Shown: one piece after another, positions 2 through 34,400 of the stretch
Position numbering within the stretch: the stretch's first letter is position 1
Layout of the letters: every line of letters begins with the position of its first letter
Origin: Gaiellaceae bacterium
GTDB taxonomy: Bacteria > Actinomycetota > Thermoleophilia > Gaiellales > Gaiellaceae
DNA: 45,473 nucleotides
Assembly: GCA_035545195.1 (NCBI GenBank)
Contig: DASZYW010000124.1
Span: forward strand, 1 to 45,473
Direction of reading: 5' to 3'
Notes under the pieces: generated by a model
The model's input: the letters and a program-made list of their open reading frames with translations, nothing else
Told to the model about the DNA's origin: nothing
Databases searched by the model: none
Program-made: the position numbers and the translations under genes

Positions 2-1803
<1,802 letters not shown>

Positions 1804-1819
<16 letters not shown>

Positions 1820-5131: not shown

Positions 5132-5218
5132 CCCACCGAGGCTACTAGGCCCGTCCCGCCGCGAGAATGAGCCGAGAGGCCCATTGCGGGCCGCCCGGTC
5201 GTCTGCGACCGTGGAGAC

Positions 5219-9808: not shown

Positions 9809-9815
9809 GAGCTCG

Positions 9816-15247: not shown

Positions 15248-16458
15248 CGTTGCGGTCGGCCGGCTCCGAGCGCGAGGGCGGACGGTTCCGCCTCGCCCAC
15301 GTCGTCTCGCATCCGATCGCCTACTTCGTGCCGCTCTATCGCGAGCTGGCGCACCGCTCGGAGCTCGAGCTGACCGTCTTCTACTGCTCGGACGCGACGC
15401 TCGAAGCCCACTACGACCCGAACTTCGAGCGGGAGCTCGAGTGGGACACGCCGCTCCTCGGCGGCTACGAGGCGGTCTTCCTGCCGAGCTCGCGCGGGAA
15501 GCCCGTCGACGCCGCTCGGAGCCCGAACTGGGACGTCGTCCGCGAGACGACCTCGGGCCGCTACGACGCGGTGTGGGTGCACGCCTACGGGCGCGCGACG
15601 ACCTGGGCGGTCGCGGCGGCGGGCCGGCTGCGCGGCGTGCCGGTCCTCCTCCGCGAAGAGGCGACGCTGCTCCGCCGGCGCGGCCCGCTCCGCCGCTCGC
15701 TCAAGGAGCTCCCGCTCCGCCTCCTCTTCCGCACGATCTGGGGCGGCCTCTACATCGGCGAGGAGAACAAGCGCTACCTGCGCCGCTACGGCGTGCCCGA
15801 ACGGCGTCTGTTCCCGGTTCGGTACTGCGTGGACAACGCGTACTTCCGCACGGCCGCCGAGTCGCTGCGACCTCGGCGCGAAGAGGTGCGGGCCTCATTC
15901 GGCATCGACGACGACGCGCCGGTCGTCCTCTTCTGCGGGAACCTCGCATCGCACAAGCGACCGCTCGAGCTGCTCGAAGCCTTTGCGCGCGTCCGGCAGG
16001 GGACGAAGTGCTGGCTGCTCCTCGTCGGCGACGGCCCGCTGCGGGAAGCGCTCGAGCACACGGTGGCCGCCGACGAGATCCCCGGCGTGATCCTCGCCGG
16101 CTTCCGTAACTTCTCGGAGATGACAGACGCCTACGCCGCCGCCGACGTCTTCGTGCTCCCGTCACAACGGGACACGTGGGGCTTGGTCGTGAACGAGGCG
16201 ATGAACTTCGGCCTGCCGCTCGTGGTCTCGGACCGCGTCGGCTCCGGCACCGATCTCGTCCGGACAGGCGTGAACGGCTACGTCGTCCGCGACGACGACG
16301 TCTCCGGGCTCAGTGACGCGCTCGATGCCCTCGTGCGGGACGCGGAGCTGAGGAGCCGCTACGGCGCGGCAAGCCGGGAGATCGTGGCCGAGTACAGCGT
16401 CGAAGCGGCGGCGGACGGAATCGTGGCGGCGTGCCGCTCCATCGAGAGTCGAGCCTGA
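15244..16458 (+). CDS. GT4-family glycosyltransferase
   Basis: TTG start overlaps the upstream TGA. Motif seen: VFVLPSQRDTWGLVVNEAMNFGLPLVVSDRVGSG. Confidence 0.75.
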   Translation: MTLRSAGSEREGGRFRLAHVVSHPIAYFVPLYRELAHRSELELTVFYCSDATLEAHYDPNFERELEWDTPLLGGYEAVFLPSSRGKPVDAARSPNWDVVRETTSGRYDAVWVHAYGRATTWAVAAAGRLRGVPVLLREEATLLRRRGPLRRSLKELPLRLLFRTIWGGLYIGEENKRYLRRYGVPERRLFPVRYCVDNAYFRTAAESLRPRREEVRASFGIDDDAPVVLFCGNLASHKRPLELLEAFARVRQGTKCWLLLVGDGPLREALEHTVAADEIPGVILAGFRNFSEMTDAYAAADVFVLPSQRDTWGLVVNEAMNFGLPLVVSDRVGSGTDLVRTGVNGYVVRDDDVSGLSDALDALVRDAELRSRYGAASREIVAEYSVEAAADGIVAACRSIESRA

Positions 16459-17066: not shown

Positions 17067-18210
17067 TGCCGAGCGCGCGGCCGATCCTCTCCTGGAACAC
17101 CTCGAAAGAGAAGTTCTCGATCGCATAGGGACGAGACGCAGCGGCGAACTGCTTCCGCAGCACGTCGTCGCGGAGCAGACTCGCGAGCGCGGCGGTCAGC
17201 TCGACGTGATCGTCCGGGTCGACCAGGAAGCCGGTGCGGCCGTGGGCGAGCGACTCCGCCGCCCCGTCCAGCGAGCTCGCGATCGCGGGCTTCCCGCACG
17301 CCTGCGCCTCGATCACGACGAGCGGCACGCCTTCGCCGAACCAGCGTGCTCCGGTCTCGGTCTTCATGCCGCTCGCGAGGACGAAGACGTCGGAGAGCAG
17401 GTAGACGTCGGGCAGCAGGTCGTCTTCGACGTTCCCCGCGAAGAGAACGGCGTCCTTCAACCCGAGCTCGGCCGCGAGCGCCTCGAGGCGCGGCCGGTCG
17501 GGGCCGTCCCCGACGATCAGGTACTGCGACTCGACCCCTTCGCCCCGTAGCTCGGCGAGTGCCCTGATCACGCGGTCGTGGCCCTTGAACCGGGTCTCCG
17601 GCAATCGCGACACGGTCAGCACCGTGGGAACGCCGGCACGGAGTCCGAGCCGGTCGGCGAGGCCGGGTAGCGGGTCGCGCGGCCGAAAGCGCTCGCAGTC
17701 CACGCAGTCGTGCACGATCGCGATCCGGCCTCGGAGCTTCGGGAAGCGGCCTTCGAGATCCCGTCTCGTGAAGTCGCAGTCGGAAACGATCGTCTCGGCG
17801 CGGAGGAGCGCGATGCGCTGCAGAAGCGGGATCGGCTTCCAGACCTCTGCGCCGTAGACGTTCAGGCAGTAACGGCGCCCGAGCAGCAGGCGGCAGACGA
17901 GCCCGAGCGGCGCGAGTGCGATGTGGTCGCAGATCGTGCGCCCGTGCGCTGCTCCGCGACGCGCGGCACGCAGGACGCGGAGCGCGAAGGCGGCCTTCGC
18001 TCGGACGCCGAAGCCCCGTCCGACCACGTCGATCGGAAGCGCACCGGCGAAGCCGCCTGTCACCGGCGGCGCGAGCGAGCAGGCCCGGACCGCATTCCGC
18101 CCGGCGAGATTGCCGAGCGCACGGACCTCGTAGCGGCCGTACCGCTGGATCCCTCCGAGCGAGAAGAGGTCGTGGGAGACATAGAGGAAGTCGGCGGAAT
18201 CGACCGTCAT
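17029..18210 (-). CDS. GT4-family glycosyltransferase
   Basis: ATG at 18210 (MTVDSADFLYVSHD) overlaps the stop of the upstream aminotransferase (ATGA). Motifs seen: VSRLPETRFKGHD and GEGVPLVVIEAQACGKPAIAS. The rest of the 652-aa ORF is out-of-frame overlap. Confidence 0.7.
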   Translation of the reverse strand: MTVDSADFLYVSHDLFSLGGIQRYGRYEVRALGNLAGRNAVRACSLAPPVTGGFAGALPIDVVGRGFGVRAKAAFALRVLRAARRGAAHGRTICDHIALAPLGLVCRLLLGRRYCLNVYGAEVWKPIPLLQRIALLRAETIVSDCDFTRRDLEGRFPKLRGRIAIVHDCVDCERFRPRDPLPGLADRLGLRAGVPTVLTVSRLPETRFKGHDRVIRALAELRGEGVESQYLIVGDGPDRPRLEALAAELGLKDAVLFAGNVEDDLLPDVYLLSDVFVLASGMKTETGARWFGEGVPLVVIEAQACGKPAIASSLDGAAESLAHGRTGFLVDPDDHVELTAALASLLRDDVLRKQFAAASRPYAIENFSFEVFQERIGRALGITESHAGPAAPS

Positions 18211-19355
18211 GCGTGGCACGCGGTGCGAACTGCCTCGATCACGCGCTGCTGGTCCGCCTCGCTCAAGGAGGCCCCGCTCGGAAGGCTCAGCCCCTCGCGC
18301 GCGAGTGCCTCGGTCACCGGGAGCGAGACGCCACTCCTGTACGGAGGCATCTCGTGAACCGGCTGGAACGTGGGCCGCGTGTCGATGCCCGCGCGACCGA
18401 GGCGTTCGGCGAGCGTGTCGCGATCGACGCGGCATGCCTCGGTCAGGCGCACGGTCGTCATCCAGCACGCGCTCGTGCACCACGGCTGCTGCTCCTGCAA
18501 CTCCAGCCCCGGCACGTCGGAGAGGCCGAGGGCGTACTCGGCCGCGATCGCGATCTTCCGGGCGAGGAACTCCGCCATCCGCTCCATCTGGGCGACGCCG
18601 ACGGCGCCCTGCAGGTTCGTCATCCGGTAGTTGAACCCGACCTCGTCGTGCCAGTAGCGCCGCTCGGGGGCCATCGCGTGGTCGCGAAGCAGCCGCAAGC
18701 GGTCGGCGAGCGCATCGTCGTCCGTGGTCAGCGCGCCACCCTCGCCGGTCGTGATCAGCTTGTTCCCGTAGAAGCTGAAGGCGCCGATCGCGCCGAGCGC
18801 GCCGACCGGGCGCCCCTTGTGGCGCGCACCGAGCGCCTCGGCAGCGTCCTCGAGCACCGCGACGCCGTGGGCGTCGGCGAGCTCGAGCAGCTCGTCCATC
18901 GGTGCGGCGTGGCCGTAGATGTGCACCGGCACGATCGCGCGCGTGCGCTCGGACAGGACAGCGGCCACTCCGTCCGCGGTGAGGCACCAGTGGCGCGGGT
19001 CGCAGTCGACGAACACCGGAGTGGCGCCGGCGTATCGGACTGCCGCCGCGGTCGCCACAAACGTGAAGGACGGAACGACGACCTCGTCTCCCGGCCCGAC
19101 GCCGAGGGCGACGAGGCCGAGGTGGAGGGCGGCGGTCCCGTTCGCGACGGCGACCACGTGGCGCGTTCCGACCTCGTCGGCCAGAGCGGCCTCGAACTCG
19201 GTGACGAAGCGTCCGAGCGACGAGATCCAGCCGGACTCGACGGCCTCGGTGACGTAGGCCAGCTCGTTCCCGCCGAGCACCGGCTCCCCGACGGGTACGC
19301 GTTGCACGAGCGCCGTCTCATCGCCCTCGCCCACCGCTCGCGTCTCCGAGGTCAC
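18207..19355 (-). CDS. DegT/DnrJ/EryC1/StrS-family PLP-dependent sugar aminotransferase
   Basis: GTG at 19355 lies about 10 nt after AAGGAGGA. Motifs seen: NGTAALHL, VPSFTFVATA, FSFYGNKLITTGEGG (PLP lysine), YWHDEVGFNYRMTNLQGAVGVAQ. Confidence 0.85.
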   Translation of the reverse strand: MTSETRAVGEGDETALVQRVPVGEPVLGGNELAYVTEAVESGWISSLGRFVTEFEAALADEVGTRHVVAVANGTAALHLGLVALGVGPGDEVVVPSFTFVATAAAVRYAGATPVFVDCDPRHWCLTADGVAAVLSERTRAIVPVHIYGHAAPMDELLELADAHGVAVLEDAAEALGARHKGRPVGALGAIGAFSFYGNKLITTGEGGALTTDDDALADRLRLLRDHAMAPERRYWHDEVGFNYRMTNLQGAVGVAQMERMAEFLARKIAIAAEYALGLSDVPGLELQEQQPWCTSACWMTTVRLTEACRVDRDTLAERLGRAGIDTRPTFQPVHEMPPYRSGVSLPVTEALAREGLSLPSGASLSEADQQRVIEAVRTACHA

Positions 19356-19440
19356 CGCCAGCTCATCCTCCTTAGCCGACAAGCATAGGGGTCTGGCGGC
19401 GGCGTACAAGACCGTCGCGGAACCGGCCTAGACTGCGGCC

Positions 19441-21539: not shown

Positions 21540-22822
<1,283 letters not shown>

Positions 22823-22850: not shown

Positions 22851-24134
22851 GTGGCGTCGATCTGCGTGACGGGGATCTGGCATCAGGGCGCCGTCCTGTC
22901 CGCCTGCCTCTCCGAGCTCGGGCACTCCGTCGCCGGCGTCTGCGCGAACGCCGAGGAGGCCCATCGACTCGAGCTGGGCGAGCCGCCTGTCGCAGAGCCG
23001 CTGCTCGGCAGCCTGCTCGAGGCCGGCGTCGCGGCAGGGCTGCTCCGCTTCACCGACGACCTCGCCGACGGGCTCGCCGGCACCGAGTTCGTCTTCCTCT
23101 CCACCGACACCGCGGTCCGGACCGACGACTCGCCTGACACCGAGCCGCTGTTCACGCTTGCGCGCGCGATCGGGGAGGCGGCGACGGGGCCGTTCGTCCT
23201 CTGCGTGACGGCGCAGGTGCCCGTCGGGACGACCGAGCGCCTCGCGGCGGTGGCGGGCCACCGTCTCGAGGGATACGCGTACGTCCCGGAGTTCCTGCGC
23301 CTCGGCACCGCCGTGGAGAGCTTCCGGAACGCGGACCGTGTCGTTGTCGGCGCCGACGACACGACGGTTCGTGACCGAGTTGCACGTCTCTACGAAGAGC
23401 TCGGCCGGCCGATCGTCCCGACCGACGTCCGCACGGCGGAGCTGGCGAAACACGCCGCCAACGCCTTCCTGGCCACCTCGATCAGCTTCGCGAACGAGAT
23501 CGCCGACATCGCAGGAGCGTTCGGCGCCGACCCGTTCGCCGTCGGCGAGATCCTGCGGCTCGACCGGCGGATCGGCCCGCACGCCTATCTCACGCCGGGT
23601 CCCGGCTTCGCCGGGGGGACCCTCGGCCGGGAGCTACGCACGCTGCAGCAGCTCGCGAAGGAGCGCGGCCTCGAGACCCGGGTCGCGGATGCCGTCCTCG
23701 CGGTGAACGATGGCCGCGCGGGCCGGATTCTCGACCGCCTCCGCGAAGGTCTCGGCGAGCTCGCCGGCAAGCGGGTCGCCTTGCACGGGCTGACGTACAA
23801 GCCAGGCACCCCGACGCTGAGGCGCGCGGCCTCGCTCGAGCTCGCGGAGGCTCTCGACCGGGCGGGCGCATCGGTCCGCGGCTACGACCCGCTCGCAACC
23901 GCCGGCGTCGAGCCGCTGGCGGTCGAGATCGTCCGGGACGCGTACGCGGCGGCGAAGGACGCCGATGCGGTCGCCGTCCTCAACCCATGGCCGGACGGCG
24001 CCGTCGACATGCCGCGCCTGCGCGCCGCGATGCGCGGCAACCTCCTCGTCGACGCGACGGGCACGATCGGACGGGCCCCCGCCGCCGGCGCAGGCTTCCG
24101 GTACCTCTCCCTCTGGCCCGAAGGCCGCGCATGA
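22851..24134 (+). CDS. UDP-glucose/GDP-mannose dehydrogenase-family protein with degenerate active site (candidate pseudoenzyme or repurposed paralog)
   Basis: GTG start 4 nt after AAGGAGG. Family motifs seen: YVPEFLRLG, ELAKHAANAFLATSISFANEIA, GLTYKPGTPTLRRAASLEL. However, the nucleophile motif reads GFAGGTLGRE instead of GxGGxCxPKD, and the N-terminal dinucleotide motif reads TGIWHQG instead of GxGYVG. Confidence 0.75.
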   Translation: MASICVTGIWHQGAVLSACLSELGHSVAGVCANAEEAHRLELGEPPVAEPLLGSLLEAGVAAGLLRFTDDLADGLAGTEFVFLSTDTAVRTDDSPDTEPLFTLARAIGEAATGPFVLCVTAQVPVGTTERLAAVAGHRLEGYAYVPEFLRLGTAVESFRNADRVVVGADDTTVRDRVARLYEELGRPIVPTDVRTAELAKHAANAFLATSISFANEIADIAGAFGADPFAVGEILRLDRRIGPHAYLTPGPGFAGGTLGRELRTLQQLAKERGLETRVADAVLAVNDGRAGRILDRLREGLGELAGKRVALHGLTYKPGTPTLRRAASLELAEALDRAGASVRGYDPLATAGVEPLAVEIVRDAYAAAKDADAVAVLNPWPDGAVDMPRLRAAMRGNLLVDATGTIGRAPAAGAGFRYLSLWPEGRA

Positions 24135-24991
24135 GCGGGGTGCTGGCAGGGCGCACCGCGCTCGTCGCCGGCGCCGGGCGCGGGATCGGTCGCGCGATCG
24201 CCCTCGCATACGCGCGCGAGGGCGCGAAGCTCGCGCTGCTCGCGCGCAGCCGCGACCAGCTGGAAGCCGTCGCCGAGGAGTGCGGAGGCGCGCTCTGCCT
24301 GCCCTGCGACGTCGCGTCCTGGGACGCGGTCGCCGACGCCGTGCAGCGGCTCGAGCGGGAGCTGGGGCCGGCCGACGTGCTCGCCAGTGCCGCCGGGGTC
24401 TATGGCCCGATCGGCCCGACGGCGGAGATCGACGCGCAGGCCTGGGCGCAGGCGATCGACGTCAACCTCGTCGGCGCGTTCCACCTCTGCCGCGCGGTCG
24501 TCCCCGCGATGGAGAACCGAAGCTGGGGCCGCGTGATTCTCCTCGCGGGCGGCGGTGCGACGGCCCCCCTTCCCTTCTTCTCGGCGTATGCGGCGTCGAA
24601 GGCCGGGCTCGTCCGGCTGGCCGAGACGCTGGCCGAGGAGCTGCGCGGCACGGGCGTGACGGTGAACGCGGTCGCGCCGGGGCTCGTCGACACGCAGATG
24701 CAGGACGAGGTGCTCGCCGCCGGCGACCGCGCCGGCCCGTTGCTCGAGAAGATCCGCGCCGCCCGGGAGACCGGGGCCGGAGCGGTGCCGCCCGAGGTGG
24801 CGGCCGAGCTGGCGGTCTTCCTCGCATCCGACGCGTCGGCGGGCCTGACCGGCAAGCTCGTCGCGGCTCCGCACGATCCGTGGCGCGACTGGACCGGCGA
24901 CGCGGCGGACCGGATCAGCGCAGGCCCCTGGTACACGATCCGCAGACTCGACCGGCACACGCTCGAGCCGCTTCTCGAGGAGCTGGGTTGA
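24131..24991 (+). CDS. short-chain dehydrogenase/reductase (SDR) with ~45-aa C-terminal extension, paralog 1
   Basis: ATGA overlap with the upstream stop. Motifs seen: cofactor motif VAGAGRGIGRAIA, YAASK (YxxxK), and C-terminal GKLVAAPHDPWRDW. Confidence 0.8.
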   Translation: MSGVLAGRTALVAGAGRGIGRAIALAYAREGAKLALLARSRDQLEAVAEECGGALCLPCDVASWDAVADAVQRLERELGPADVLASAAGVYGPIGPTAEIDAQAWAQAIDVNLVGAFHLCRAVVPAMENRSWGRVILLAGGGATAPLPFFSAYAASKAGLVRLAETLAEELRGTGVTVNAVAPGLVDTQMQDEVLAAGDRAGPLLEKIRAARETGAGAVPPEVAAELAVFLASDASAGLTGKLVAAPHDPWRDWTGDAADRISAGPWYTIRRLDRHTLEPLLEELG

Positions 24992-26010
24992 GCGGGCTCG
25001 AGGGCGTGACCGCGATCGTCACCGGCGGCGGCCGCGGGCTCGGGCGGCAGATCTCGGTCACGCTCGCGCGCGACGGCGCGAGAGTCGTCCTCGTGGCACG
25101 CACCCGTTCCGAGCTCGAGGCGACCGCCGAGGAGATCCGCGCCGTCGGCGGCGAGGCGCTCGTCTGTCCAGGGGACGTCTCCGACCTGCCCGCCATGGAG
25201 GCCGTCGTCGATGAGGCGCTCGCCTGGGGAGACGTCGAACTCGTCGTCAACAACGCGGGCTCCCAGCAGCCGATCGGAGTCCTGACCGCCAACGATCCGG
25301 AAGCGTGGGCTCGCACGGTCCGCGTCAACCTTCTCGGCGCACTCCATCTCTGCCGGCTCCTTCTCCCGCACCTGATCGAGCGCGGCGGCGGACGGATCGT
25401 CAACGTGTCGGGTGGCGGCGCAGCCAACGCACGGCCGTACTTCAGCGCCTACGCCGCCTCGAAGGCCGCCGTCGCGCGCTTCACCGAGACGCTGGCCGAG
25501 GAGCTGCGCGGATCCGGCGTCCAGGTGAACGCGATCGCGCCGGGAGCCATGAACACGCGAATGCTGGACGAGATCCTCGCCTCCGGCGTCGAGCGGGAGA
25601 TCGCGGAGGCACAGCTCGTCTCCGGCGGCACACCCCTCGATGTGCCCGCCGGGCTGGTGCGCTTTCTCGCCACCTGCTCGCCGGCGATCACCGGGAAGCT
25701 GATCGCGGCGCCGCACGACGACTGGCAGAGTTGGGACGGCGACGTGGCTCGGATCGCGGAGACGCCCCTGCTGACGCTGCGCCGCGTCGACCCGTTCACC
25801 GTAGGCCCGCTGCTCGACACGCTGCAGGAGGCCGAGGCGTGTGCCTCGCCGCCGGCGTCGTCGGCGCGGGGGCGGTCGGCGGGAAGCGGGCCGCGGTTGC
25901 CCACGCCGCCGGCGACCGGGTCGTCGCGGTCTGCGACCTCGCCGCCGAGCGGGCGGACGCGGCGGCGGAGGCGTACGGAGCCGAGAGCTGCGCCGACTGG
26001 CGCGAGGTGA
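24988..26010 (+). CDS. short-chain dehydrogenase/reductase, paralog 2 (read-through tail overlapping next gene)
   Basis: TTG at 24988 overlaps the upstream TGA (GTG 25006 is the alternative). Motifs seen: VTGGGRGLGRQIS, NVSGGGA...YAASK, GKLIAAPHDDWQSW. Homology to paralog 1 ends near 25838, but the frame stays open to 26010. Confidence 0.7.
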   Translation: MSGLEGVTAIVTGGGRGLGRQISVTLARDGARVVLVARTRSELEATAEEIRAVGGEALVCPGDVSDLPAMEAVVDEALAWGDVELVVNNAGSQQPIGVLTANDPEAWARTVRVNLLGALHLCRLLLPHLIERGGGRIVNVSGGGAANARPYFSAYAASKAAVARFTETLAEELRGSGVQVNAIAPGAMNTRMLDEILASGVEREIAEAQLVSGGTPLDVPAGLVRFLATCSPAITGKLIAAPHDDWQSWDGDVARIAETPLLTLRRVDPFTVGPLLDTLQEAEACASPPASSARGRSAGSGPRLPTPPATGSSRSATSPPSGRTRRRRRTEPRAAPTGAR

Positions 26011-26861
26011 CGCGCCGCGACGACGTCGACGTCGTCGTCGTCTCGACGGTCAACGGCGCGATGCAGCAGGTCGTCCTCGACGCGCTCGCGCACGGCAAGC
26101 ACGTCCTCTGCGAGAAGCCGCTCGGCCGCAACCTCGAGGAGGCGACCGCGATGCGTGACGCCGCCCGCACCCACGAGCGTGTCCTCAAGGTCGGCTTCAA
26201 CCACCGCTTCCACCCCGCCGTGGCACGCGCGCACGAGCTCGCGGCCGCGGGCGCGATCGGCCCGCTGCTCTCGATCCGCGCCGCCTACGGGCACGGCGGA
26301 CGCGCCGGCTACGAGCGCGAGTGGCGCGCCGACCCCGAGCTCTCCGGAGGCGGCGAGCTCCTCGACCAGGGCGTCCACGTCCTCGACCTCTGCCGCTGGT
26401 TCCTCGGCGAGTTCTCCGAGGTCCACGGCGTCGTTGCGACGTCCTTCTGGGAGATCGCCCCGCTGGAGGACAACGGCTTCGCGCTCCTGCGCACGGCGGG
26501 CGGGCAGGTGGCGAGCCTCCACACGAGCTGGACGCAGTGGCGGAACCTCTTCCGCTTCGAGGTCTTCGGCCGGGACGGCTGGCTCGCGGTCGAGGGCCTC
26601 GGCGGCAGCTACGGCACCGAGACGCTCGTCCACGGCACCCGCCGCCCGGAGTTCGGCGTCCCCGAGGAGGAGCGCTTCGAGTTTCCCGGTGCGGACGAGT
26701 CCTGGCGGCTCGAGTGGGAGGAGCTGCGCGCCGCGATCGCGGAGGGTCGCGACCCGTCCGGCAGCGGGGACGACGGCGTCGAGGCCGCGCGGCTCGTCGA
26801 GGCGATCTACCGCTCCGCGCACGAGGGCGCCCGCGTCGAGCTCCACGAGGTGCTCGCGTGA
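25839..26861 (+). CDS. Gfo/Idh/MocA-family NAD(P)-dependent sugar oxidoreductase
   Basis: GTG at 25839 gives VCLAAGVVGAGAVGGKRA (Rossmann fold). Motifs seen: HVLCEKPLGRNLEEA (EKP motif), KVGFNHRFHP, and a C-terminal alpha/beta domain. Confidence 0.8.
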   Translation: MCLAAGVVGAGAVGGKRAAVAHAAGDRVVAVCDLAAERADAAAEAYGAESCADWREVTRRDDVDVVVVSTVNGAMQQVVLDALAHGKHVLCEKPLGRNLEEATAMRDAARTHERVLKVGFNHRFHPAVARAHELAAAGAIGPLLSIRAAYGHGGRAGYEREWRADPELSGGGELLDQGVHVLDLCRWFLGEFSEVHGVVATSFWEIAPLEDNGFALLRTAGGQVASLHTSWTQWRNLFRFEVFGRDGWLAVEGLGGSYGTETLVHGTRRPEFGVPEEERFEFPGADESWRLEWEELRAAIAEGRDPSGSGDDGVEAARLVEAIYRSAHEGARVELHEVLA

Positions 26862-27583
26862 AGGCCCTTCTGCTCGCCGCCGGCCGCGGCACCCGCCTCC
26901 GCCCCCTGACCGACACTGTGCCGAAGTGCCTCGTCCCGGTCGCGGGCAAGCCGACGCTCGTCCGCGCGATCGAGCTGCTTCGCGAGCAGGGCGTCACCGA
27001 CCTGATCGTCAACCTCCACCACCGTCCCGAGGCCGTCGTCGACGCGATCGGCGACGGCGGCTCCCTCGGGGTGCGGGTCGCGTACTCGTTCGAGCCCGAG
27101 CTGCTCGGGACGGCGGGCGCGCTCGACCCCTGTCGCGACCGGCTCGGCGACTCGCGCTTCCTGGTCGTGTTCGCCGACAACGTCTTCGCCTGCGACCTGG
27201 GCGAGGTCGTCGCGCTGCACGAGCGGCTCGGCGCGGCGCTGACGATGACCCTCCATCACCGCGACGACGTCCGGGCCAGCGGCTGGGCCGACGTGGACGG
27301 CGACGGCGTGGTCCGGCGGTTCGTCGAGAAGCCCGAGTCGCCCGAAGCCTTCGGCGGCTGGGTGAACGCCGGCCTGCTCGTGTGCGAGCCGCGCGTCCTC
27401 GAGGCCGTGCCGCGAGGCGTCGCGAGCGATCTCGGGCGCGACGTGGTTCCCGCCCTGCTGGGCGCGAACGAGACCGTCGGCGGCTACCGCCTGCCCGGGT
27501 CGGCGCACTTCCTCTGGATCGACACACCCGCCGACCTCGAGCGCGCGGAGCGGCTCCTCGGCCAGGAGGAGGCGGTCGCGTGA
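26858..27583 (+). CDS. hddC: sugar-1-phosphate nucleotidyltransferase, best fit D-glycero-alpha-D-manno-heptose-1-phosphate guanylyltransferase
   Basis: GTGA overlap with the upstream stop. Motifs seen: KALLLAAGRGTRLRPLTDTVPKCLVPVAGKP and EPELLGTAGAL. The assignment to heptose rests on context with the HddA, GmhA and GmhB genes. Confidence 0.7.
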   Translation: MKALLLAAGRGTRLRPLTDTVPKCLVPVAGKPTLVRAIELLREQGVTDLIVNLHHRPEAVVDAIGDGGSLGVRVAYSFEPELLGTAGALDPCRDRLGDSRFLVVFADNVFACDLGEVVALHERLGAALTMTLHHRDDVRASGWADVDGDGVVRRFVEKPESPEAFGGWVNAGLLVCEPRVLEAVPRGVASDLGRDVVPALLGANETVGGYRLPGSAHFLWIDTPADLERAERLLGQEEAVA

Positions 27584-28563
27584 TCCTCGCCCGCGCCCCG
27601 CTCCGGATCACGCTCGGCGGCGGCGGCACGGACCTGCCCTCCTACTACGAGAGCCACGGCGGACTCGTGGTCAGCGCCGCGATCGACAAGTACGTCTACG
27701 TCGCGGTCAACCGTCCCGCCGGGGACGACCTGATCCGGCTCAAGTACTCCCAGAGCGAGGAAGTCGCGAGCCTGGACGAGATCCGGCACGACCTCGCAGG
27801 GCCTGCGCTCCGTGAGCTCGGAGTCCTCGACAACGTGGAGATCGCCTCGATGGCCGATGTTCCCGCCGGCACCGGGCTCGGCTCGTCGGGGAGCTACCTC
27901 GTCGCGCTCCTGACCGCGCTCTACGAGCTGAAGCGGGAGCGGATCCCGCCTCAGGCGCTCGCCGAGCAGGCGGTCCACATCGAGCACGACCTCGCCGGGC
28001 ATCCGATCGGGAAGCAGGACCAGTACGCCTCGACCTTCGGCGGCCTGATCCGCCTCGACATCGAGCCGAGCGGCAGGGTCGAGGTGTCGCCGCTGCGCGT
28101 GGCGCCCGAGACGGCGGAGCTGCTCCGCGAGCGGCTGTTGCTCTTCTACACCGGCGTCAGCCGCCGCGCCGACGAGATCCTGGCCGAGCAGCACCACGAC
28201 TCGCGCACCGGGAAGCAGACGGTGCTCGAGAGCCTGCACCGGACGAAGGAGATCGGCATCGAGTCGGCCGCGCTGCTCGAGGCGGGCCGCCTCGACGAGT
28301 TCGGGCGGCTGCTGCACGAGCACTGGGAGACGAAGAAGCGCCGCTCGCGACGGATCTCCACCTCCGCCGTCGACGGCTGGTACGAGCGCGCCCGCGAGGC
28401 CGGGGCGCTCGGCGGCAAGCTCGTGGGAGCCGGCGGCGGAGGCTTCCTCTTGCTCTACTGCCCCGACCCGGAGGCGGTGCGCGCCGAGCTGGCGGCCGAG
28501 CCGCTGCGCGAGATCGCCTTCCGCTTCGACTTCGACGGCGCAAAGGTGCTCGCAGACCTGTGA
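27580..28563 (+). CDS. hddA: GHMP-family sugar kinase, best fit D-glycero-D-manno-heptose-7-phosphate kinase
   Basis: GTGA overlap with the upstream stop. Motifs seen: ILARAPLRITLGGGGTDLPSYY, PAGTGLGSSGSYLVALL (GHMP motif II), KLVGAGGGGFLLLY (motif III). Confidence 0.75.
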   Translation: MILARAPLRITLGGGGTDLPSYYESHGGLVVSAAIDKYVYVAVNRPAGDDLIRLKYSQSEEVASLDEIRHDLAGPALRELGVLDNVEIASMADVPAGTGLGSSGSYLVALLTALYELKRERIPPQALAEQAVHIEHDLAGHPIGKQDQYASTFGGLIRLDIEPSGRVEVSPLRVAPETAELLRERLLLFYTGVSRRADEILAEQHHDSRTGKQTVLESLHRTKEIGIESAALLEAGRLDEFGRLLHEHWETKKRRSRRISTSAVDGWYERAREAGALGGKLVGAGGGGFLLLYCPDPEAVRAELAAEPLREIAFRFDFDGAKVLADL

Positions 28564-29678
28564 CGCGCGTCCTCGTCACCGGCGGCGCAGGCTTCATCGG
28601 CTCGCACACCGTCGACCTCCTGCTCGAACGCGGCTACGACGTGCGCATCCTCGACTCGCTGCAGCCGCGCGTCCATCCGAACGGCAAGCCGCCCTGGCTG
28701 CCGGCCGACGCCGAGTTCCTGCAGGGCGACGTCGCCGACCGCGACGACCTCTCGCTCGCGCTCGCCGGCGTCGACGCCGTCTTCCATCTGGCCGCGTATC
28801 AGGACTACCTCCCCGACTTCAGCACCTTCGTGCACACGAACACCGAGTCCTCGGCGCTGCTCTTCGAGCTGATCGTCGCCGACCCGGCGCGCCATCCCGT
28901 CGAGAAGATCGTCTTCGCCTCCTCGCAGGCCGTCTCCGGCGAGGGAAAGTACTCGTGCCCGGCGTGCGAGCGCGTGCTCTCGCCCGGCCCGCGTCCGCTC
29001 GAACAGCTCCGCCGCGGGGAGTGGGAGCCGCGCTGCGACCGCTGCGGCGGCGAGCTGAAGCCGGAGCTGATCGACGAGGGAACCAGCCACCCGCACACGG
29101 CCTACGGCGTGTCGAAGTACGCGATCGAGCTGCTCGCCTTCGCGCTCGGCCACCGCTACGGGATCGCCACGGCGGCGATGCGCTACACGTACGTCCAGGG
29201 CCCGCGGAACTCGTTCCACAACGCGTACTCGGGGATCGCGCGCCGCTTCGCGCTTCGCCTGCGGGCGGGCCTTCCCCCGGTCTGCTACGAGGACGGCGCG
29301 CAGCTGCGGGACTACGTCAACGTCCGTGACGTCGCCAGGGCGAACCTGCTCGCGCTCGAGAGCGACGTGGACGGGGTCGCGCTCAACGTCGGCGGCGGCC
29401 GCGCGGTGACCGTGAGAGAGTTCGCGCAGCTGATGGTCGACACCGCCGGAGCCCAGCTCGAGCCCGAGATCCCCGGCGAGTTCCGCGTCGGCGACACCCG
29501 GCACACGGTCAGCGACATCTCGCGGATGCGCGCGCTCGACTGGGAGCCGGAGATCCCGGTCGAGCAGAACGTGCGCGAGTACCTCGAGTGGCTGGACGGC
29601 CAGGACGTGCCGACCGACAACCTCTTCGATGCGGAACGCGAGATGGCCGCCTCCGGGGTGGTGCAGCGTGCCGGGTGA
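28560..29678 (+). CDS. extended-SDR NAD-dependent sugar epimerase/dehydratase with inserted Cys4 knuckle pair
   Basis: GTGA overlap with the upstream stop. Motifs seen: VLVTGGAGFIGSH, ASSQAV, YGVSKY (YxxxK). The insertion YSCPACERV...PRCDRCGGEL lies between the catalytic Ser and Tyr. Confidence 0.8.
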   Translation: MTRVLVTGGAGFIGSHTVDLLLERGYDVRILDSLQPRVHPNGKPPWLPADAEFLQGDVADRDDLSLALAGVDAVFHLAAYQDYLPDFSTFVHTNTESSALLFELIVADPARHPVEKIVFASSQAVSGEGKYSCPACERVLSPGPRPLEQLRRGEWEPRCDRCGGELKPELIDEGTSHPHTAYGVSKYAIELLAFALGHRYGIATAAMRYTYVQGPRNSFHNAYSGIARRFALRLRAGLPPVCYEDGAQLRDYVNVRDVARANLLALESDVDGVALNVGGGRAVTVREFAQLMVDTAGAQLEPEIPGEFRVGDTRHTVSDISRMRALDWEPEIPVEQNVREYLEWLDGQDVPTDNLFDAEREMAASGVVQRAG

Positions 29679-30279
29679 GCCCGGGCACGTCGAGCGCTAC
29701 CTCGCCGAGACGGCGTGGATCGCGGAGCGGATCGACCCCGCCCAGGTCGAGGGGGTCGTCGACGAGCTGCTCCGGCTGCGCGAGCGCAGCGGCCGGCTCT
29801 TCCTCGCCGGCTCGGGCGGCGGCGCCGGGCACGCCTCTCATGCCGCCGCGGACTTCCGCAAGCTGGGCGGCTTCGAGGCGTACGCGGTGAGCGACAACGC
29901 GAGCGAGCTGACCGCACGCGTCAACGACGAGGGCTGGGAGACGAGCTACGCAGAGTGGCTGCGCGCCAGCCGGCTCGGCCCTGCCGACCTCCTCTTCGTC
30001 TTCTCGGTCGGCGGCGGGGACGCCGAGCGCGGGATCAGCGCGAACCTCGTCGCCTGCATCGATCTCGCCCTCCAGGTCGGGGCGCGCGTCTGCGGCGTCG
30101 TCGGCCGCGACGGCGGCCACACCGCGAGACGCGCGCACGCCTGCGTCGTCGTCCCGTCACCCGATCCTGCCTCGGCGACCGCCCACACGGAGAGCTTCCA
30201 GGCCGTGATCTGGCATCTGCTGATCAGCGACCCGAGGATCCTGTCCGCGGCGATGCGCTGGGAGCGGGAGCCGGCCTAG
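29668..30279 (+). CDS. gmhA: SIS-domain sedoheptulose-7-phosphate isomerase-like protein
   Basis: GTG at 29668 overlaps the upstream gene by 11 nt. Motifs seen: FLAGSGGGAGHASHAAADF, AVSDNASELTARVNDEGWE, LLFVFSVGGG, VVGRDGG. The layout is colinear with GmhA. Confidence 0.7.
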   Translation: MPGEPGHVERYLAETAWIAERIDPAQVEGVVDELLRLRERSGRLFLAGSGGGAGHASHAAADFRKLGGFEAYAVSDNASELTARVNDEGWETSYAEWLRASRLGPADLLFVFSVGGGDAERGISANLVACIDLALQVGARVCGVVGRDGGHTARRAHACVVVPSPDPASATAHTESFQAVIWHLLISDPRILSAAMRWEREPA

Positions 30280-30377
30280 TCAGAAGTCCAGCTCCCCCGC
30301 CGGATGCATTGCATCGCCATCAGAACCGTAGTAACGTCGCCCTTGGCGCCGGGGTCGACGGGATGGGGGAACACGGG

Positions 30378-31127
30378 ATGCAGTTCGCGGATCTGAAGGT
30401 TCGTCTCTTTGCCGATGGCGCGGACAAGGCGTCGATGCTCGCGCTCGCCGACAACCCGCTGATCGCGGGGTTCACGACCAACCCGACACTGATGCGCAAG
30501 GCCGGCGTCACCGACTACCACACGTTCGCTCGGGACGTGCTGGCGGCGGTTCCGGACCGGCCGATCTCCTTCGAGGTCGTCTCCGACGACTTCGACGCCA
30601 TGGAACGCGAGGCTCGCGCGCTGGCGGCCTGGGGCGCCAACGTCTGCGTGAAGATCCCGGTCACGAACACTCGGGGCGAGCCCGCCGGCGACCTCGTCCA
30701 CCGACTGGCAGTGGACGGGATCCACGTCAACGTCACCGCGATCCTGACCCTGCCGCAGGTCGAGGCCGCCTGCGAGTGGCTCGCCGGCTGCCGCATCGGC
30801 TACATCTCCGTCTTCGCCGGACGGATCGCCGACACGGGCCGCGACCCGGTTCCGGTCATGGCCGAGGCCGTCCGGATCATGAGCGCGAACTCTGCGCTCG
30901 AGCTCGTCTGGGCGAGCCCGCGCGAGATCCTCAACGTCGTCCAGGCCGACTCGGTCGGCTGCCACATCGTCACGCTGACCGACGACCTGATCGCGAAGCT
31001 GCCGCTGCTCGGCAAGGACCTCGACGAGTTCTCGCTGGAAACCGTCGCGATGTTCGCGCACGATGCGCGCAGCGCCGGACTCTCGGTCGTAGCGGAACCG
31101 GCCGACACGACAGTCGCAGTCGCCTAG
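30378..31127 (+). CDS. transaldolase / fructose-6-phosphate aldolase family (short TalC/FSA-type) protein
   Basis: ATG at 30378 after GGGGGA. Motifs seen: LFADGAD, GFTTNPTLM, VCVKIPVT (Schiff-base Lys context), HVNVTAI, YISVFAGRIAD. Confidence 0.8.
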   Translation: MQFADLKVRLFADGADKASMLALADNPLIAGFTTNPTLMRKAGVTDYHTFARDVLAAVPDRPISFEVVSDDFDAMEREARALAAWGANVCVKIPVTNTRGEPAGDLVHRLAVDGIHVNVTAILTLPQVEAACEWLAGCRIGYISVFAGRIADTGRDPVPVMAEAVRIMSANSALELVWASPREILNVVQADSVGCHIVTLTDDLIAKLPLLGKDLDEFSLETVAMFAHDARSAGLSVVAEPADTTVAVA

Positions 31128-31131: not shown

Positions 31132-32340
31132 GTGACGATGCGAAGTCTCCGGATCCTCGTGGTCCTCTCCAAGCTGTCCCCTCGTTACGGGGGACCGCCT
31201 CGCCGCACCGTCGACTTCTGCGCCGCGCTCGCCGCCCGCGGCCACACGGTCGAGCTGTTCACGACCGACATCGACGGTCCCGACCGACTCGACGTTCCGC
31301 TGGGAACGCCGGTGGAGAGGGACGGCTTCCTCGTCACGTACCACGACGCACGCCCACTCCACGAGTACGCGTTCTCGCTCGGGATCGCGTCCGCTCTGCG
31401 CAGACGGGTGGGCGAGTTCGACGTCGTCCATCTCAAGGGCGTCTACGAGTTCCCGATCGTCGCCGGCGCGTTCTTCTGCCGCCGCCGCCGCGTGCCGTAT
31501 GTCGTCGAGCCGAGCGGCGTCTTCGACCGCTATCACCGCGCCGCTTCCTCCAGGAAGAAAGCGCTCCACGACCTTCTCCTGGGACGGCGCGTACTCGGTG
31601 AAGCCGCGGCGGTCCGGTACGCATCCCACGCGGAACAGCAGCAGGCGATCGAGACCGGGCTCGACCAGGGACGCGGCTGCATCATCCCACCCGGGATGGT
31701 CTTCCCGGACGAGCGCGAGTTGGTTGACGTCGAACGGATACCCGGGCTCGTGTCGTACGTCGGCCGAGTCAGCGCAAAGAAGGGCCTCGACGTCCTCCTC
31801 GACGCCTTTGCCCTCGTCGCGGAGCAGCGGCCGCAGTGCCGTCTGGCACTCGCCGGCAACGACGACGAGGGGCTGACTCCTGAGCTCGAGCGCCGCGCGC
31901 GAGAGCTCGGTATCCGCTCGGCTGTCGAGTTCCACGGAGCGATCGACGGCATCGCGAAATTCCGGCTCCTCGCCGCCTCGGAGGCGTTCGTGCTGCCGAC
32001 CGAGGCCGAGAGCTTCGGCGCGGCCGCCTACGAGGCGATGGCGGTCGGCACTCCGACGATCGTCACGCCGGGTTTGGCCGACCACGCTGCGCTCGAGGCC
32101 GCGGGCGCCGCTGTCGTCGCGGAACGGAACGCGCAGGCGGTGGCGGAGGCGCTCGCAGGCATTCTCGACGATCCCGAGCGGAGCCGCGCGATCGCCGCGG
32201 CGGGCAAACGACACGCGAGGTCGAGCTACTCCCGTGAACACACTGCTGTCGCGCTGGAGCAGCTCTACGCGGGGCTCGTGCAGTGCCGGGACGATCGCGA
32301 CGTCTCGGTGACGTCTGCGTCCGCGGCCGGTTTGCCGTGA
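31132..32340 (+). CDS. GT4-family glycosyltransferase
   Basis: Motifs seen: LRILVVLSKLSPRYGGP and AFVLPTEAESFGAAAYEAMAVGTPTIVT. The start is GTG 31132 or ATG 31138. Confidence 0.75.
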   Translation: MTMRSLRILVVLSKLSPRYGGPPRRTVDFCAALAARGHTVELFTTDIDGPDRLDVPLGTPVERDGFLVTYHDARPLHEYAFSLGIASALRRRVGEFDVVHLKGVYEFPIVAGAFFCRRRRVPYVVEPSGVFDRYHRAASSRKKALHDLLLGRRVLGEAAAVRYASHAEQQQAIETGLDQGRGCIIPPGMVFPDERELVDVERIPGLVSYVGRVSAKKGLDVLLDAFALVAEQRPQCRLALAGNDDEGLTPELERRARELGIRSAVEFHGAIDGIAKFRLLAASEAFVLPTEAESFGAAAYEAMAVGTPTIVTPGLADHAALEAAGAAVVAERNAQAVAEALAGILDDPERSRAIAAAGKRHARSSYSREHTAVALEQLYAGLVQCRDDRDVSVTSASAAGLP

Positions 32341-34400
32341 GGCTCCTCGTCACCGGCGCAACCGGCTTCCTCGGCGCGCCCTTCGTCGAGGCGGCCACAG
32401 CCCGCGGGCACGAGGTCGTGGCGCTCGTCCGCCGGCCAACTGAGCGAGTCGAGCAGTCCGCGAGCTCCGTCGTCGTCGCCGACCTCCCGAAGCTCGGAGA
32501 CGCGGTGCTCCCGAACGGGATCGACGCGGTCGTCAACTTCGCGACCGGTACCTCGGGAACGACCGAGCGAATGATCGACGTCGCCGTGGGCGGCGTGACC
32601 GGACTGACGCAATGGGCGCGCGGGAGCGGCGCCCGACGTTTCGTCCACGTCAGCTCGGTCAGCGTCCTCCCCGGCCGGACCGACGGGAGCCGACTCGAAC
32701 CGCATCCGGACCGCCGTGGCGGCTACGCGCAGGCGAAGACGCTCGCCGAGCAGGCGCTGCACGAGCTCGACGTCGAGCAGCTCCCGTTCGAGCTGACGAT
32801 CGTGCGTCCGGGCCTCGTCTTCGGACCAGGGATGAAGAACCCGCTCGGAGGGACGGCGGCGCGCCTGCCCGGGCGAGTCGCACTCGGCCTCGGCAAGCGG
32901 CGACACGCATTGCCGTTCGTCACGCTCGAGGACACCGTCGACGCCGTGCTCGACCTGCTCGAGCAACCTGCGCGGCCCGGAACCGTGTCCGTCCATCACA
33001 TCCTGTCGGGCTCGCCCCCGCGCAAGGAAGAGATCCTTGCCGAGACGCGGCGCCTGACGGGTTGGCCGGCGCGAACGATCTGGATCCCGCGGCCCGCCGC
33101 GAGCACCCTCGCGTATGCGGCGGAGGCGGTGCTGAGATTGCGCGGCCGCGGCAAGCACCTCCCGTACGTCGTCCGCCGTCTCTACTCGTTCGACGCGCGC
33201 TCGCTCCCGAACGACGTCTGGCCGAAGCTCGGACGCGAGAGCAGGGGCACGCTCGAGCCGGCTCTACGAGACGTACTGTCGCCACGGCGACAGCCGGCGC
33301 TCGTCTGTGCGTATCGCGACCGCATCCGGCCACTGCTCGTCCACCCCGCTGCTGCTCGGGGGGATGCACGCCCGCTGGCGCTCGTCGGAGCAGGGCAGAT
33401 CACGTCCAGCGTCCATGTGCCGGTCCTCCGCACGCCAACCGGGTTCACGCCCGCCGTCGTGGTCGATCGCGACGAGGAGCTTGCCGCGCACGTCGCCGCC
33501 GAGCTCGGTTGCCGCCGCTCGGCCGCGACGCTCGACGAGGCTGGAATCGAGCCCGGCGCAGGCTGGACGGCGGTCGTGGCGACTCCCGGGCCGACGCATT
33601 CCGCGCTCGCGTCGGACCTGCTCGACCGCGGCGCCGGCGTCCTGCTCGAGAAGCCCGCAGCGACCAGCGGCGTCGAGTTCACGCACCTCCTGGCCTCGGC
33701 CGAGAGGAACGGGCTACCCGTGACCGTGTTCCACAACTACCGGCTTCGCCCGGCCAGCCGGCGGCTCTGGGAGTTTCTGACCGCGCACGATCCGGGCGGC
33801 CTCGTGCGCGCCGGCATCGGCTTCTCGTCTCCCGGGCTGCACACGCAAGCCTCGAGCTGGATGCGCGAGGAGAAGCGGAATCGGATCCTGCTCATGGATC
33901 TCGCGATCCACTTCCTCGATCTCGCCTTCCTCGTCGGGGGCGAGCTGGCAACGGTGAGCGAGGTCGACGTCGCCGACGGTCCCGACGGCGGAACCCTCGC
34001 CGTGGACGGAAGCGGACGGCTGGCAGACGGCGCGCGCCTCGACTTCTCCCTCGACCTCGCCGGAACGGCACAGCGCGCCCAGATCACGCTGGAGTTCGAG
34101 CGCGCGACGTGCGTGCTCGACTTCTTCCCGGACGGCTTCCGCATCCTGCCGCCCCGCGCCCACCCCGCGGACGACCTGATCGCCGCGAGCGGCAGGCTCG
34201 GCCGCGCCGTGTGGGCGCTCGCGCGACGCCGGAGCGGCGGGCTGCCGACACGCGCGGTCCCGCATGCCGAGATCTACCGCTGGCACCGGGCCACTCTCGA
34301 CGATCCCGCGCTCGACAGTCCGTTCGCGCTCGCCTCACTCGCTCCGACGATGCGTTCGCTCGACCGGATCTGCGCTGCGGTCTACGGTGGCGGGGAGTGA
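32337..34400 (+). CDS. two-domain fusion: extended-SDR epimerase/dehydratase (N) + Gfo/Idh/MocA oxidoreductase (C)
   Basis: GTGA overlap with the upstream stop. N-domain motifs: LLVTGATGFLGAPF and YAQAK (YxxxK). From about nt 33370: LALVGAGQITSSVHVP, VLLEKPAATS (EKP motif), VFHNYRLRP. Confidence 0.75.
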   Translation: MRLLVTGATGFLGAPFVEAATARGHEVVALVRRPTERVEQSASSVVVADLPKLGDAVLPNGIDAVVNFATGTSGTTERMIDVAVGGVTGLTQWARGSGARRFVHVSSVSVLPGRTDGSRLEPHPDRRGGYAQAKTLAEQALHELDVEQLPFELTIVRPGLVFGPGMKNPLGGTAARLPGRVALGLGKRRHALPFVTLEDTVDAVLDLLEQPARPGTVSVHHILSGSPPRKEEILAETRRLTGWPARTIWIPRPAASTLAYAAEAVLRLRGRGKHLPYVVRRLYSFDARSLPNDVWPKLGRESRGTLEPALRDVLSPRRQPALVCAYRDRIRPLLVHPAAARGDARPLALVGAGQITSSVHVPVLRTPTGFTPAVVVDRDEELAAHVAAELGCRRSAATLDEAGIEPGAGWTAVVATPGPTHSALASDLLDRGAGVLLEKPAATSGVEFTHLLASAERNGLPVTVFHNYRLRPASRRLWEFLTAHDPGGLVRAGIGFSSPGLHTQASSWMREEKRNRILLMDLAIHFLDLAFLVGGELATVSEVDVADGPDGGTLAVDGSGRLADGARLDFSLDLAGTAQRAQITLEFERATCVLDFFPDGFRILPPRAHPADDLIAASGRLGRAVWALARRRSGGLPTRAVPHAEIYRWHRATLDDPALDSPFALASLAPTMRSLDRICAAVYGGGE

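Follow-up and report, generated by a model that had tools for sequence, protein, structure and literature searches.

The window analysed here, a stretch of 45,473 nucleotides from a Gaiellaceae bacterium (contig DASZYW010000124.1 of assembly GCA_035545195.1, positions 1 to 45,473), contains a Wzx/Wzy-type polysaccharide cluster, and the present work concerns one gene of that cluster, located at 22851–24134 on the forward strand. The gene encodes a protein of the UDP-glucose dehydrogenase (UGDH) family that lacks the catalytic cysteine of its canonical relatives and carries a tryptophan in the Rossmann loop. A gene for a UDP-sulfoquinovose synthase (SqdB) lies upstream of it, and a compact series of sugar-nucleotide genes follows on the same strand, coding for two short-chain dehydrogenases/reductases (SDR1 and SDR2), a Gfo/Idh/MocA oxidoreductase, a nucleotidyltransferase, a GHMP kinase, an epimerase, an SIS isomerase and a small transaldolase. 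An earlier reading of the same DNA by eye (hereafter, the original prediction) had drawn attention to the missing residues and had suggested that the UGDH scaffold could have been repurposed, either as a subunit that deals with UDP-sulfoquinovose or as a one-step oxidoreductase.

A UGDH-fold protein with exchanged active-site motifs

The open reading frame codes for 427 residues and begins with a GTG codon; because this codon lies 5 nt downstream of a strong ribosome-binding site, AAGGAGG, the N-terminus of the product, MASICVTGIWHQG, is taken as real. The frame is intact and its coding bias is strong. A wrongly assigned start codon that would mask a normal GxGxxG loop was considered and rejected, given the placement of the ribosome-binding site and the conservation of the N-terminal motif in homologues. 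The protein matched the three UGDH Pfam domains (PF03721, 86.6 bits; PF00984, 82.7 bits; PF03720, 63.3 bits) and scored 263.8 bits, against a cut-off of 189.8, with the subfamily model TIGR03026 ('nucleotide sugar dehydrogenase'). An AlphaFold2 model built from 100 homologues (pLDDT 94.2, pTM 0.90; confidence very high for the N-terminal Rossmann domain) superposed on BceC (2y0c), UgdG (4a7p) and human UGDH (2q3e) with TM scores of 0.89–0.93. The model predicts an intact UGDH fold, and domains, subfamily score and model together place the protein, at the level of the fold, in the UDP-glucose/GDP-mannose dehydrogenase superfamily; this is the family that had been assigned in the original prediction from short peptides, all of which are found in the translation. 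The cut-offs of the curated 6-dehydrogenase equivalogs were not reached, whether for TuaD (235.6 against 700), AglM (221.3 against 670), WecC (72–76 against 459–750) or Ugd (53.7 against 757).

Residue register was established by three alignments, made with phmmer against 4a7p, 3gg2 and 3vtf, with a profile against 4a7p, and with hmmalign for 154 sequences, and was identical in all three. The Rossmann loop, GTGYVG in canonical enzymes, reads GIWHQG (G8-I-W10-H11-Q12-G13), with Trp10 at the second Gly, and Cys31 stands in place of the acidic residue that ends β2. In the nucleophile motif, GGSCFPKD has become GGTLGRE: the Cys of the GGxCxxKD motif that marks NDP-sugar 6-dehydrogenases is Thr257 in every alignment, Lys is Arg260, and Asp is Glu261, a conservative change that leaves an acidic residue after the nucleophile position. 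The by-eye reading of these exchanges (Trp within GxGxxG, Cys to Thr, Lys-Asp to Arg-Glu) therefore stands; the register held, there is no Cys near the nucleophile position, and the only cysteines of the protein are C5, C19, C31 and C118. Three more changes, which like Cys31 had not been listed, convert PEFLREG to PEFLRLG (Glu to Leu151), KST to TAQ (Thr to Gln122) and VGTP to TDTA (Gly to Asp86). The protein is thus characterized by GIWHQG, D86, Q122, P146-EFLRLG, K200-HAAN204 and G255-G-T257-L-G-R260-E261.

When set against the canonical 6-dehydrogenases UgdG (4a7p), BceC (2y0c), human UGDH (2q3e) and AlgD (1mv8), to which it is 31–35% identical, the protein has the same three-domain fold and keeps the catalytic Lys and Asn of the Lys-x3-Asn motif (K200 and N204), the first Glu of PEF, Arg240 and the GLxYK...R nucleotide-binding motif; it differs in having Thr257 for Cys, Trp10 in GxGxxG, His for Tyr11, Gln for Thr122, Leu for Glu151, Arg for Lys260 and Asp for Gly86, as well as in the loss of the β2 acidic residue. 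Alignment and superposition were made against solved UGDHs, among which no structure of a Cys-less member was found. Because the catalytic Cys is absent, a second oxidation through a thiohemiacetal and a thioester is not possible. Judged by its sequence, the protein is not a two-step NDP-sugar 6-dehydrogenase, and should not carry that annotation.

The same residues recur in all of the 120 closest homologues (46–66% identity), which come from many phyla and include metagenome-assembled genomes (MAGs) of Gaiellaceae, Thermodesulfobacteriota, Nitrospirae and Eisenbacteria: GxWHQ[GA], PEFLxLG, KHxxN and GGTL[GA]R[ED] are kept in 120/120, and this invariance excludes chance or sequencing error. 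A HMMER scan of 1.84 billion cluster representatives (50%-identity clusters) was also carried out, and the best 150 matches were analysed. Twelve belong with the window protein (clade 1; WHQG and PEFLxLG), 83 form a sister group (clade 2; GxWHLG, PENLRLG, KHxxN and GGTLARD) and 55 are canonical (GxGYVG, PEFLREG, KYxxN and GGSC[FL]PKD), so that 95 of these 150 are Cys-less. Column statistics showed that residues invariant in the canonical group are swapped for other invariant residues in both Cys-less clades, namely G10W, Y11H, G86D, G93D, T122Q, E151L, Y201H, C257T, K260R and F316Y, and that both clades retain G8, G13, E49, E147, K200, N204, R240, K317, R324 and D401. Position 257 is Thr in 100%, and position 10 Trp in 94–100%, of both clades; Lys200, Asn204 and Glu147 are present in about 100% of the sequences. 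The β2 acidic residue is Asp or Glu in 54 of the 55 canonical sequences and in 70/83 of clade 2, and is replaced by Cys in 83 of the 120 clade-1 homologues.

These findings bear on one alternative, in which an ordinary UDP-glucose dehydrogenase has left behind an inactive copy that is now decaying. Several catalytic residues are indeed absent, as such a copy would have it; the frame, however, is open, the coding bias strong, the ribosome-binding site good and the structure model confident, and we give decay next to no credence. A pseudogene was rejected as an explanation, since hundreds of homologues, representing more than 10 phyla, share the exchanges without variation. The exchanges have become fixed in a large clade and are kept there by purifying selection.

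A DNA pattern that requires PEF, and so detects clade 1 only, matched 20 stretches among 185,579 GTDB species representatives, each of them in an uncultured MAG and together from about 10 phyla, and 113 stretches in JGI metagenomes, a number which shows that 20 is no ceiling of the search; a tblastn search of plasmids returned solely canonical UGDHs, at no more than 38% identity. As far as sequences tell, the Cys-less branch of the UGDH fold is widespread and mis-annotated: hundreds of proteins automatically labelled 'UDP-glucose 6-dehydrogenase' or 'nucleotide sugar dehydrogenase' would be unable to make a uronic acid, which is of consequence when glycans and metabolism are predicted for many uncultured phyla. 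The branch is also a clear-cut example of a dehydrogenase fold in which cofactor pocket and nucleophile have been exchanged for a new invariant set.

Conserved gene partners and the SqdB neighbour

In the window, 4-bp start/stop overlaps couple the genes from 22851 to 29678, all on the forward strand. The stop codon of the UGDH-like gene overlaps the start of SDR1 (ATGA), which codes for a classical SDR of 286 residues (24131–24991; Pfam adh_short, 181.6 bits) with an intact YxxxK motif and a C-terminal tail, GKLVAAPHDPW...YTIRRLD; the stop of SDR1 in turn overlaps (TTGA) the TTG start of SDR2 (24988–26010), a second paralogue of the SDR1 type. There follow a 340-residue Gfo/Idh/MocA oxidoreductase (25839–26861), identified by Pfam, with an intact NAD motif, GAGAVGG, and its own ribosome-binding site, AGGAGG; a sugar-1-phosphate nucleotidyltransferase (26858–27583) whose profile scores are nearest to mannose-1-phosphate guanylyltransferases, joined to the Gfo stop by a GTGA overlap; an HddA-like GHMP sugar kinase (27580–28563; 153.9 bits against the HddA cut-off of 600); and a 372-residue protein resembling extended-SDR epimerases/dehydratases in its profile matches (28560–29678), with a conserved Cys-rich insertion. 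Next come a SIS-fold sugar-phosphate isomerase, weakly GmhA-like (29629–30279), whose orthologue in the related locus L001 matches the SIS_2 domain, and a small transaldolase of the TAL_FSA type (30363–31127; TIGR02134, 324.9 bits against a cut-off of 281.95). A HAD-IIIA sugar-phosphate phosphatase of the GmhB/histidinol-phosphatase type, assigned from profile matches, is encoded farther upstream on the forward strand (9795–10361) within the same Wzx/Wzy cluster, and a DegT/DnrJ/EryC1 aminotransferase lies on the reverse strand (18207–19409).

To see which of these neighbours are constant, 138 clade-1 loci were reduced to 113 non-redundant ones, 30 of which are at least 10 kb long (hereafter, the long loci). 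An SDR1-type gene lies immediately 3' of the UGDH-like gene in 71 of the 87 non-redundant loci with room for it, and the upstream neighbour is an epimerase in 38/71, a priming sugar transferase in 11/71 and SqdB in 1/71. Among the 30 long loci, SDR1 is present in 28, the Gfo protein in 27, the epimerase in 25 (61–83% identity), the GHMP kinase in 23, the SIS isomerase in 22, the nucleotidyltransferase and the HAD phosphatase in 18 each and the transaldolase in 17; the DegT aminotransferase occurs in five and SqdB in one.

The cassette extends to clade 2, for which eight loci were examined, all eight with Cys-less proteins and most with the same genes. In the cultured Nocardia takedensis (L026) the order is epimerase, UGDH-like, Gfo and aminotransferase, followed by SIS, HAD, transaldolase, GHMP and nucleotidyltransferase genes; in a Bathyarchaeia MAG it is epimerase, UGDH-like and Gfo, then nucleotidyltransferase, SIS and transaldolase; and in L144 it is transaldolase, epimerase, UGDH-like, SDR, Gfo, GHMP, nucleotidyltransferase, SIS and HAD. 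The Gfo gene directly follows the clade-2 gene in L027, L028 and L030. At two of the eight clade-2 loci (L029 and L146) the cassette is absent.

The UGDH-like and SDR1-type proteins are also found as natural fusions, and in both orders, with the SDR first (P0155 and P0164) or the UGDH-like domain first (P0214); from end to end, odd C-terminal tail included, the fused SDR domains can be aligned with SDR1 and SDR2 of the window. Such fusions are direct evidence of a functional partnership between the UGDH-like protein and SDR1, and they name the redox partner of the Cys-less protein. A further fusion, P0122, joins a Cys-less UGDH-like domain to a family-2 glycosyltransferase.

Fusions in both orders, together with the tight translational coupling of the operon and the loss of the cofactor and nucleophile motifs, would also suit a non-catalytic pseudoenzyme, an obligatory structural subunit that binds the NDP-sugar and presents or channels it to the SDR and the Gfo/Idh/MocA protein. 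We think this unlikely. The replacement residues W10, H11, D86, Q122, T257 and R260 are themselves invariant, and the acid-base residues Lys200, Asn204 and Glu147 are almost universally kept, a conservation pattern more typical of an altered than of a dead active site.

The gene upstream of the UGDH-like gene (21590–22822, forward strand) encodes, by sequence, a genuine UDP-sulfoquinovose synthase of the SqdB/SQD1 type: its product retains YHLxK in the active site and matches Arabidopsis SQD1 (1qrr) with 606 bits, although its NCBIfam equivalog score, 497.6, is below the cut-off of 575. It ends 28 nt before the UGDH-like gene, so that the placement right after SqdB that had been pointed out in the original prediction is correct. 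It had been proposed that the Cys-less protein could be a subunit that binds or channels UDP-sulfoquinovose, or a regulatory one, and a survey of co-occurrence with sqdB was suggested. The identical arrangement in one related Gaiellaceae MAG agrees with the proposal; of the 113 non-redundant loci, however, just one has an SqdB homologue, whether next to the gene or elsewhere (2/138 before de-duplication). The sole lineage with SqdB is the Gaiellaceae lineage of the window itself (L001/L002, 84% identity), and the 8 kb of sequence available for L007, another Gaiellaceae MAG, contain no SqdB. The conserved partners, moreover, constitute a separate, self-contained sugar-nucleotide pathway, and translational coupling ties the UGDH-like gene to its downstream neighbours, not to sqdB. 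The link to sulfoquinovose is a positional accident of one Gaiellaceae lineage, and a role as a partner of SqdB is very improbable; what survives of the idea is that a Cys-less UGDH scaffold has been repurposed, as the clade-fixed substitutions attest. That a high-GC, Gaiellaceae-like actinobacterium encodes a real UDP-sulfoquinovose synthase within a Wzx/Wzy-type polysaccharide cluster is an observation of its own, and hints at a surface glycan that contains sulfoquinovose rather than at a sulfolipid.

Likeness to the lincosamide octose genes and a possible reaction

Family for family, the conserved genes around the UGDH-like gene correspond to the sugar genes of the antibiotics lincomycin (Streptomyces lincolnensis) and celesticetin (S. 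caelestis), with matching sizes. The lincosamide set comprises a transaldolase (LmbR/CcbR, 222 residues), an isomerase (LmbN/CcbN, 202), a GHMP kinase (LmbP/CcbP, 323), a HAD phosphatase (LmbK/CcbK, 185), a guanylyltransferase (LmbO/CcbO, 232), an epimerase (LmbM/CcbM, 325), a 'nucleotide sugar dehydrogenase' (LmbL/CcbL, 436), an NAD(P) oxidoreductase that also bears a carrier domain (LmbZ/CcbZ, 332) and a DegT-type aminotransferase (LmbS/CcbS, 386) (PMC4351081; PMC12945683). LmbR joins ribose 5-phosphate and a C3 donor into an octulose 8-phosphate (PMC5854111), and GDP-octose is later converted to GDP-lincosamide by LmbM, LmbL, CcbZ and CcbS (PMC12945683). In the window, the counterparts would be the transaldolase (LmbR), the SIS isomerase (the isomerase domain of LmbN), the GHMP kinase (LmbP), the HAD phosphatase (LmbK), the nucleotidyltransferase (LmbO), the epimerase (LmbM), the Gfo protein (LmbZ/CcbZ) and possibly the aminotransferase (LmbS). 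The UGDH-like protein belongs, by description, to the family of LmbL/CcbL (427 residues against 436 for CcbL), a likeness of label, size and gene context; as to context, the Gfo, epimerase, transaldolase, SIS, GHMP, HAD and nucleotidyltransferase genes are all co-encoded with it. The genes lmbRSOPZNML form a compact operon with 4-bp overlaps (PMC7014725), as does the window cassette. In 2015, the best non-lincosamide BLAST matches of CcbL, CcbZ, CcbK and CcbO were weak (33–49% identity) and came from Thermodesulfatator, an uncultured Acidobacterium, Solibacter and Acidobacterium (PMC4351081), sources that fit the taxonomic range of the cassette.

The two systems also differ. The window cassette lies in a polysaccharide cluster and the lmb/ccb genes in an antibiotic cluster; the window has two dedicated SDRs between the UGDH-like and Gfo genes, for which no lmb counterpart is known to us; its epimerase, at 372 residues, has the Cys-rich insertion, for which CcbM is too short; and the aminotransferase, part of the lincosamide set, is not fixed in the cassette. 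The pathway to GDP-D-glycero-α-D-manno-heptose (GmhA, HddA, GmhB and HddC) has the same front-end logic and the same protein families. Here, the window proteins scored far below the heptose equivalogs, with 41 against a cut-off of 209 for the SIS isomerase (GmhA), 154 against 600 for the GHMP kinase (HddA), 64–116 against 178–250 for the HAD phosphatase (GmhB) and 70 against 300 for the nucleotidyltransferase (HddC), and the cassette regularly includes a transaldolase of its own (17/30 long loci), as the octose pathway does.

By analogy with these pathways, the cassette points to a rare 7- or 8-carbon sugar nucleotide destined for a cell-surface polysaccharide. The transaldolase would form a ketose phosphate, which the SIS isomerase would convert to the aldose phosphate; the GHMP kinase would then phosphorylate C1, the HAD phosphatase would remove the terminal phosphate, and the nucleotidyltransferase would yield the NDP-sugar. 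The product of this front end is most likely GDP-octose, otherwise a heptose derivative: the nucleotide is probably GDP, since the nucleotidyltransferase is nearest to mannose-1-phosphate guanylyltransferases, and an octose is favoured over a heptose because the transaldolase is a regular cassette member and all four heptose-enzyme scores are sub-threshold.

For the Cys-less protein itself, we propose, with confidence about evenly balanced between belief and doubt, that it is an LmbL-type component that, together with oxidoreductase partners, tailors the side chain of a nucleotide-activated octose or heptose, probably by a dehydration. A 2020 PNAS study by Wang and co-workers, taken here as a lead only, is said to have ordered the lincosamide steps as 6-epimerization, 6,8-dehydration, 4-epimerization and 6-transamination. 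The UGDH-fold protein would bind the NDP-sugar through its retained C-terminal nucleotide-sugar domain, and the acid-base set Lys200/Asn204/Glu147/Glu261, with the new invariant residues, would act on the exocyclic side chain. The reaction would most likely be a dehydration, one step in a 6,8-type (α,γ) deoxygenation of the kind ascribed to LmbL with LmbZ/CcbZ; the Gfo/Idh/MocA protein and the SDR partners would supply the hydride chemistry, and the SDRs would then carry out a keto-reduction. The old NAD crevice would hold no NAD, and Trp10, His11, Asp86, Gln122 and Leu151 would line the space for C7–C8. An NAD-free protein is favoured because the second Rossmann Gly is Trp, Thr122 and Glu151 (which we take to be nicotinamide-side contacts in canonical UGDHs) are Gln and Leu, and the β2 acid is gone from clade 1. 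The NDP-hexose 4,6-dehydratases RmlB and Gmd, which are extended SDRs of unrelated fold, may be chemically analogous, with transient oxidation, β-elimination of the terminal hydroxyl and return of the hydride; they are, however, single proteins with tightly bound NAD, whereas here a UGDH-fold protein poor in cofactor would share the work with separate NAD(P) enzymes.

Several points weigh against this proposal. Both clades keep G8 and G13, and most of clade 2 keeps the β2 Asp or Glu, so that NAD binding is possible. No match named LmbL (ABX00608) or CcbL appeared among the homologues listed for the window protein, for the Nocardia clade-2 protein or for a profile of clade-2 proteins of actinobacterial appearance, and the only names that came from cluster entries were N. 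takedensis and Frankia. The lmb cluster is not known to us to hold an SDR1-type partner, which clade 1 nearly always has, and the need of the lincosamide dehydration for both LmbL and CcbZ, reportedly found by Wang and co-workers (PNAS, 2020), again serves as a lead only. As the aminotransferase occurs in only 5/30 long loci, the end product should differ from lincosamine, and the choice of an octose over a heptose draws only on the dedicated transaldolase and the sub-threshold scores.

The retained glycines also suit a live and serious alternative, the fallback of the original prediction, in which the protein uses NAD(P) for a single two-electron oxidation that turns a secondary alcohol at C6 or C7, in the side chain of the activated octose or heptose, into a ketone; the co-encoded SDRs and Gfo protein, along with the aminotransferase, would then process the ketone onward. 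Such an oxidation is feasible without the Cys because no thiohemiacetal is needed; the residues of the first half-reaction (Lys200, Asn204, Glu147 and Asp/Glu261) are kept and the Cys machinery alone is lost, the Rossmann domain is confidently predicted, the ribose-binding Asp persists in clade 2, and LmbL has been tabulated as a 'C8 dehydrogenase' (PMC4351081; PMC12945683). Against it stand the Trp that replaces the pyrophosphate-contacting second Gly of GxGxxG in nearly all members of both clades, the lack of the β2 acidic residue in clade 1, and the two or three dedicated NAD(P) enzymes that are always co-encoded, one of them sometimes fused. Positions 122 and 151, the presumed nicotinamide-side contacts, are moreover invariantly Gln and Leu. 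We regard the one-step oxidation as possible, if rather doubtful, and our preference for a dehydratase half over a one-step dehydrogenase is only moderate.

Extending the proposed dehydration to the branch as a whole (WH[QL]G / PE[FN]LxLG / GGTLxR[DE]) is a tentative step: its members could be a cofactor-free class that acts as the elimination half of a split, multi-protein α,γ-dehydratase, with the hydride shuttle on the SDR, at times fused, on the Gfo/Idh/MocA protein or on both. A lincomycin-type pathway to higher-carbon sugars, deemed an antibiotic speciality, appears to have a widespread relative in polysaccharide clusters. To our knowledge, deoxy-octose-type sugars have so far been known essentially from lincosamide antibiotics; if such a class exists, cell-surface glycans would commonly be built with them in some archaea and in more than 10 phyla, most of these uncultured, with carriers among Gaiellales, Chloroflexota, Acidobacteriota, Planctomycetota, Dormiibacterota, Eisenbacteria and Bathyarchaeia.

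Other features of the window and of related loci

Two genes of the window cassette have unusual features. SDR2 has no stop codon at its expected end, around 25870, where the coding signal ceases; the frame stays open to 26010, adding about 46 residues, and this read-through overlaps by about 170 nt the Gfo gene, which starts with GTG at 25839. Loss of the stop codon, a true overlap of the two genes or an indel from assembly may account for the overrun. The insertion in the epimerase follows the catalytic Ser region and has the form GEGxYxC...(variable)...PGPRxLEQLxxGxWExxCPxCG, with three to four cysteines that resemble a zinc ribbon or knuckle; it is conserved in the homologues of L001, L009, L018, L023, L043, L054, L109 and others.

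At two clade-2 loci, that of N. takedensis (L026, 1–21278) and L028, the cassette adjoins genes for LuxC/LuxE/LuxD-like fatty-acid reductases and a luciferase-like monooxygenase, and the neighbours also include a NUDIX hydrolase, FkbM methyltransferases and a transporter of the major facilitator superfamily (MFS); by its surroundings, the cassette seems here to belong to a cluster for a natural product or a glycolipid rather than for a polysaccharide. In the metagenomic contig L003, two small genes of the 23S_rRNA_IVP (four-helix-bundle) type lie within the cassette (12262–12651 and 15832–16215), and a gene of the phosphofructokinase family adjoins the transaldolase gene.

Farther along the window, a single open reading frame of about 700 codons (32295–34400, forward strand) fuses NAD-dependent epimerase/RmlD-like and Gfo/Idh/MocA domains; a counterpart with 56% identity is present in a Gaiellaceae MAG (L001, 18657–20741), and this is a second unusual sugar-tailoring protein of the cluster. 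A 686-residue product (35329–37389, forward strand) combines an S-adenosylmethionine (SAM) methyltransferase domain with a GT4 glycosyltransferase. The left flank of the glycan cluster carries a partial FtsH-like AAA+/M41 protease gene (2–1819, forward strand) and a RecD2-type helicase gene (2921–5188, reverse strand), housekeeping genes that suggest a chromosomal location.

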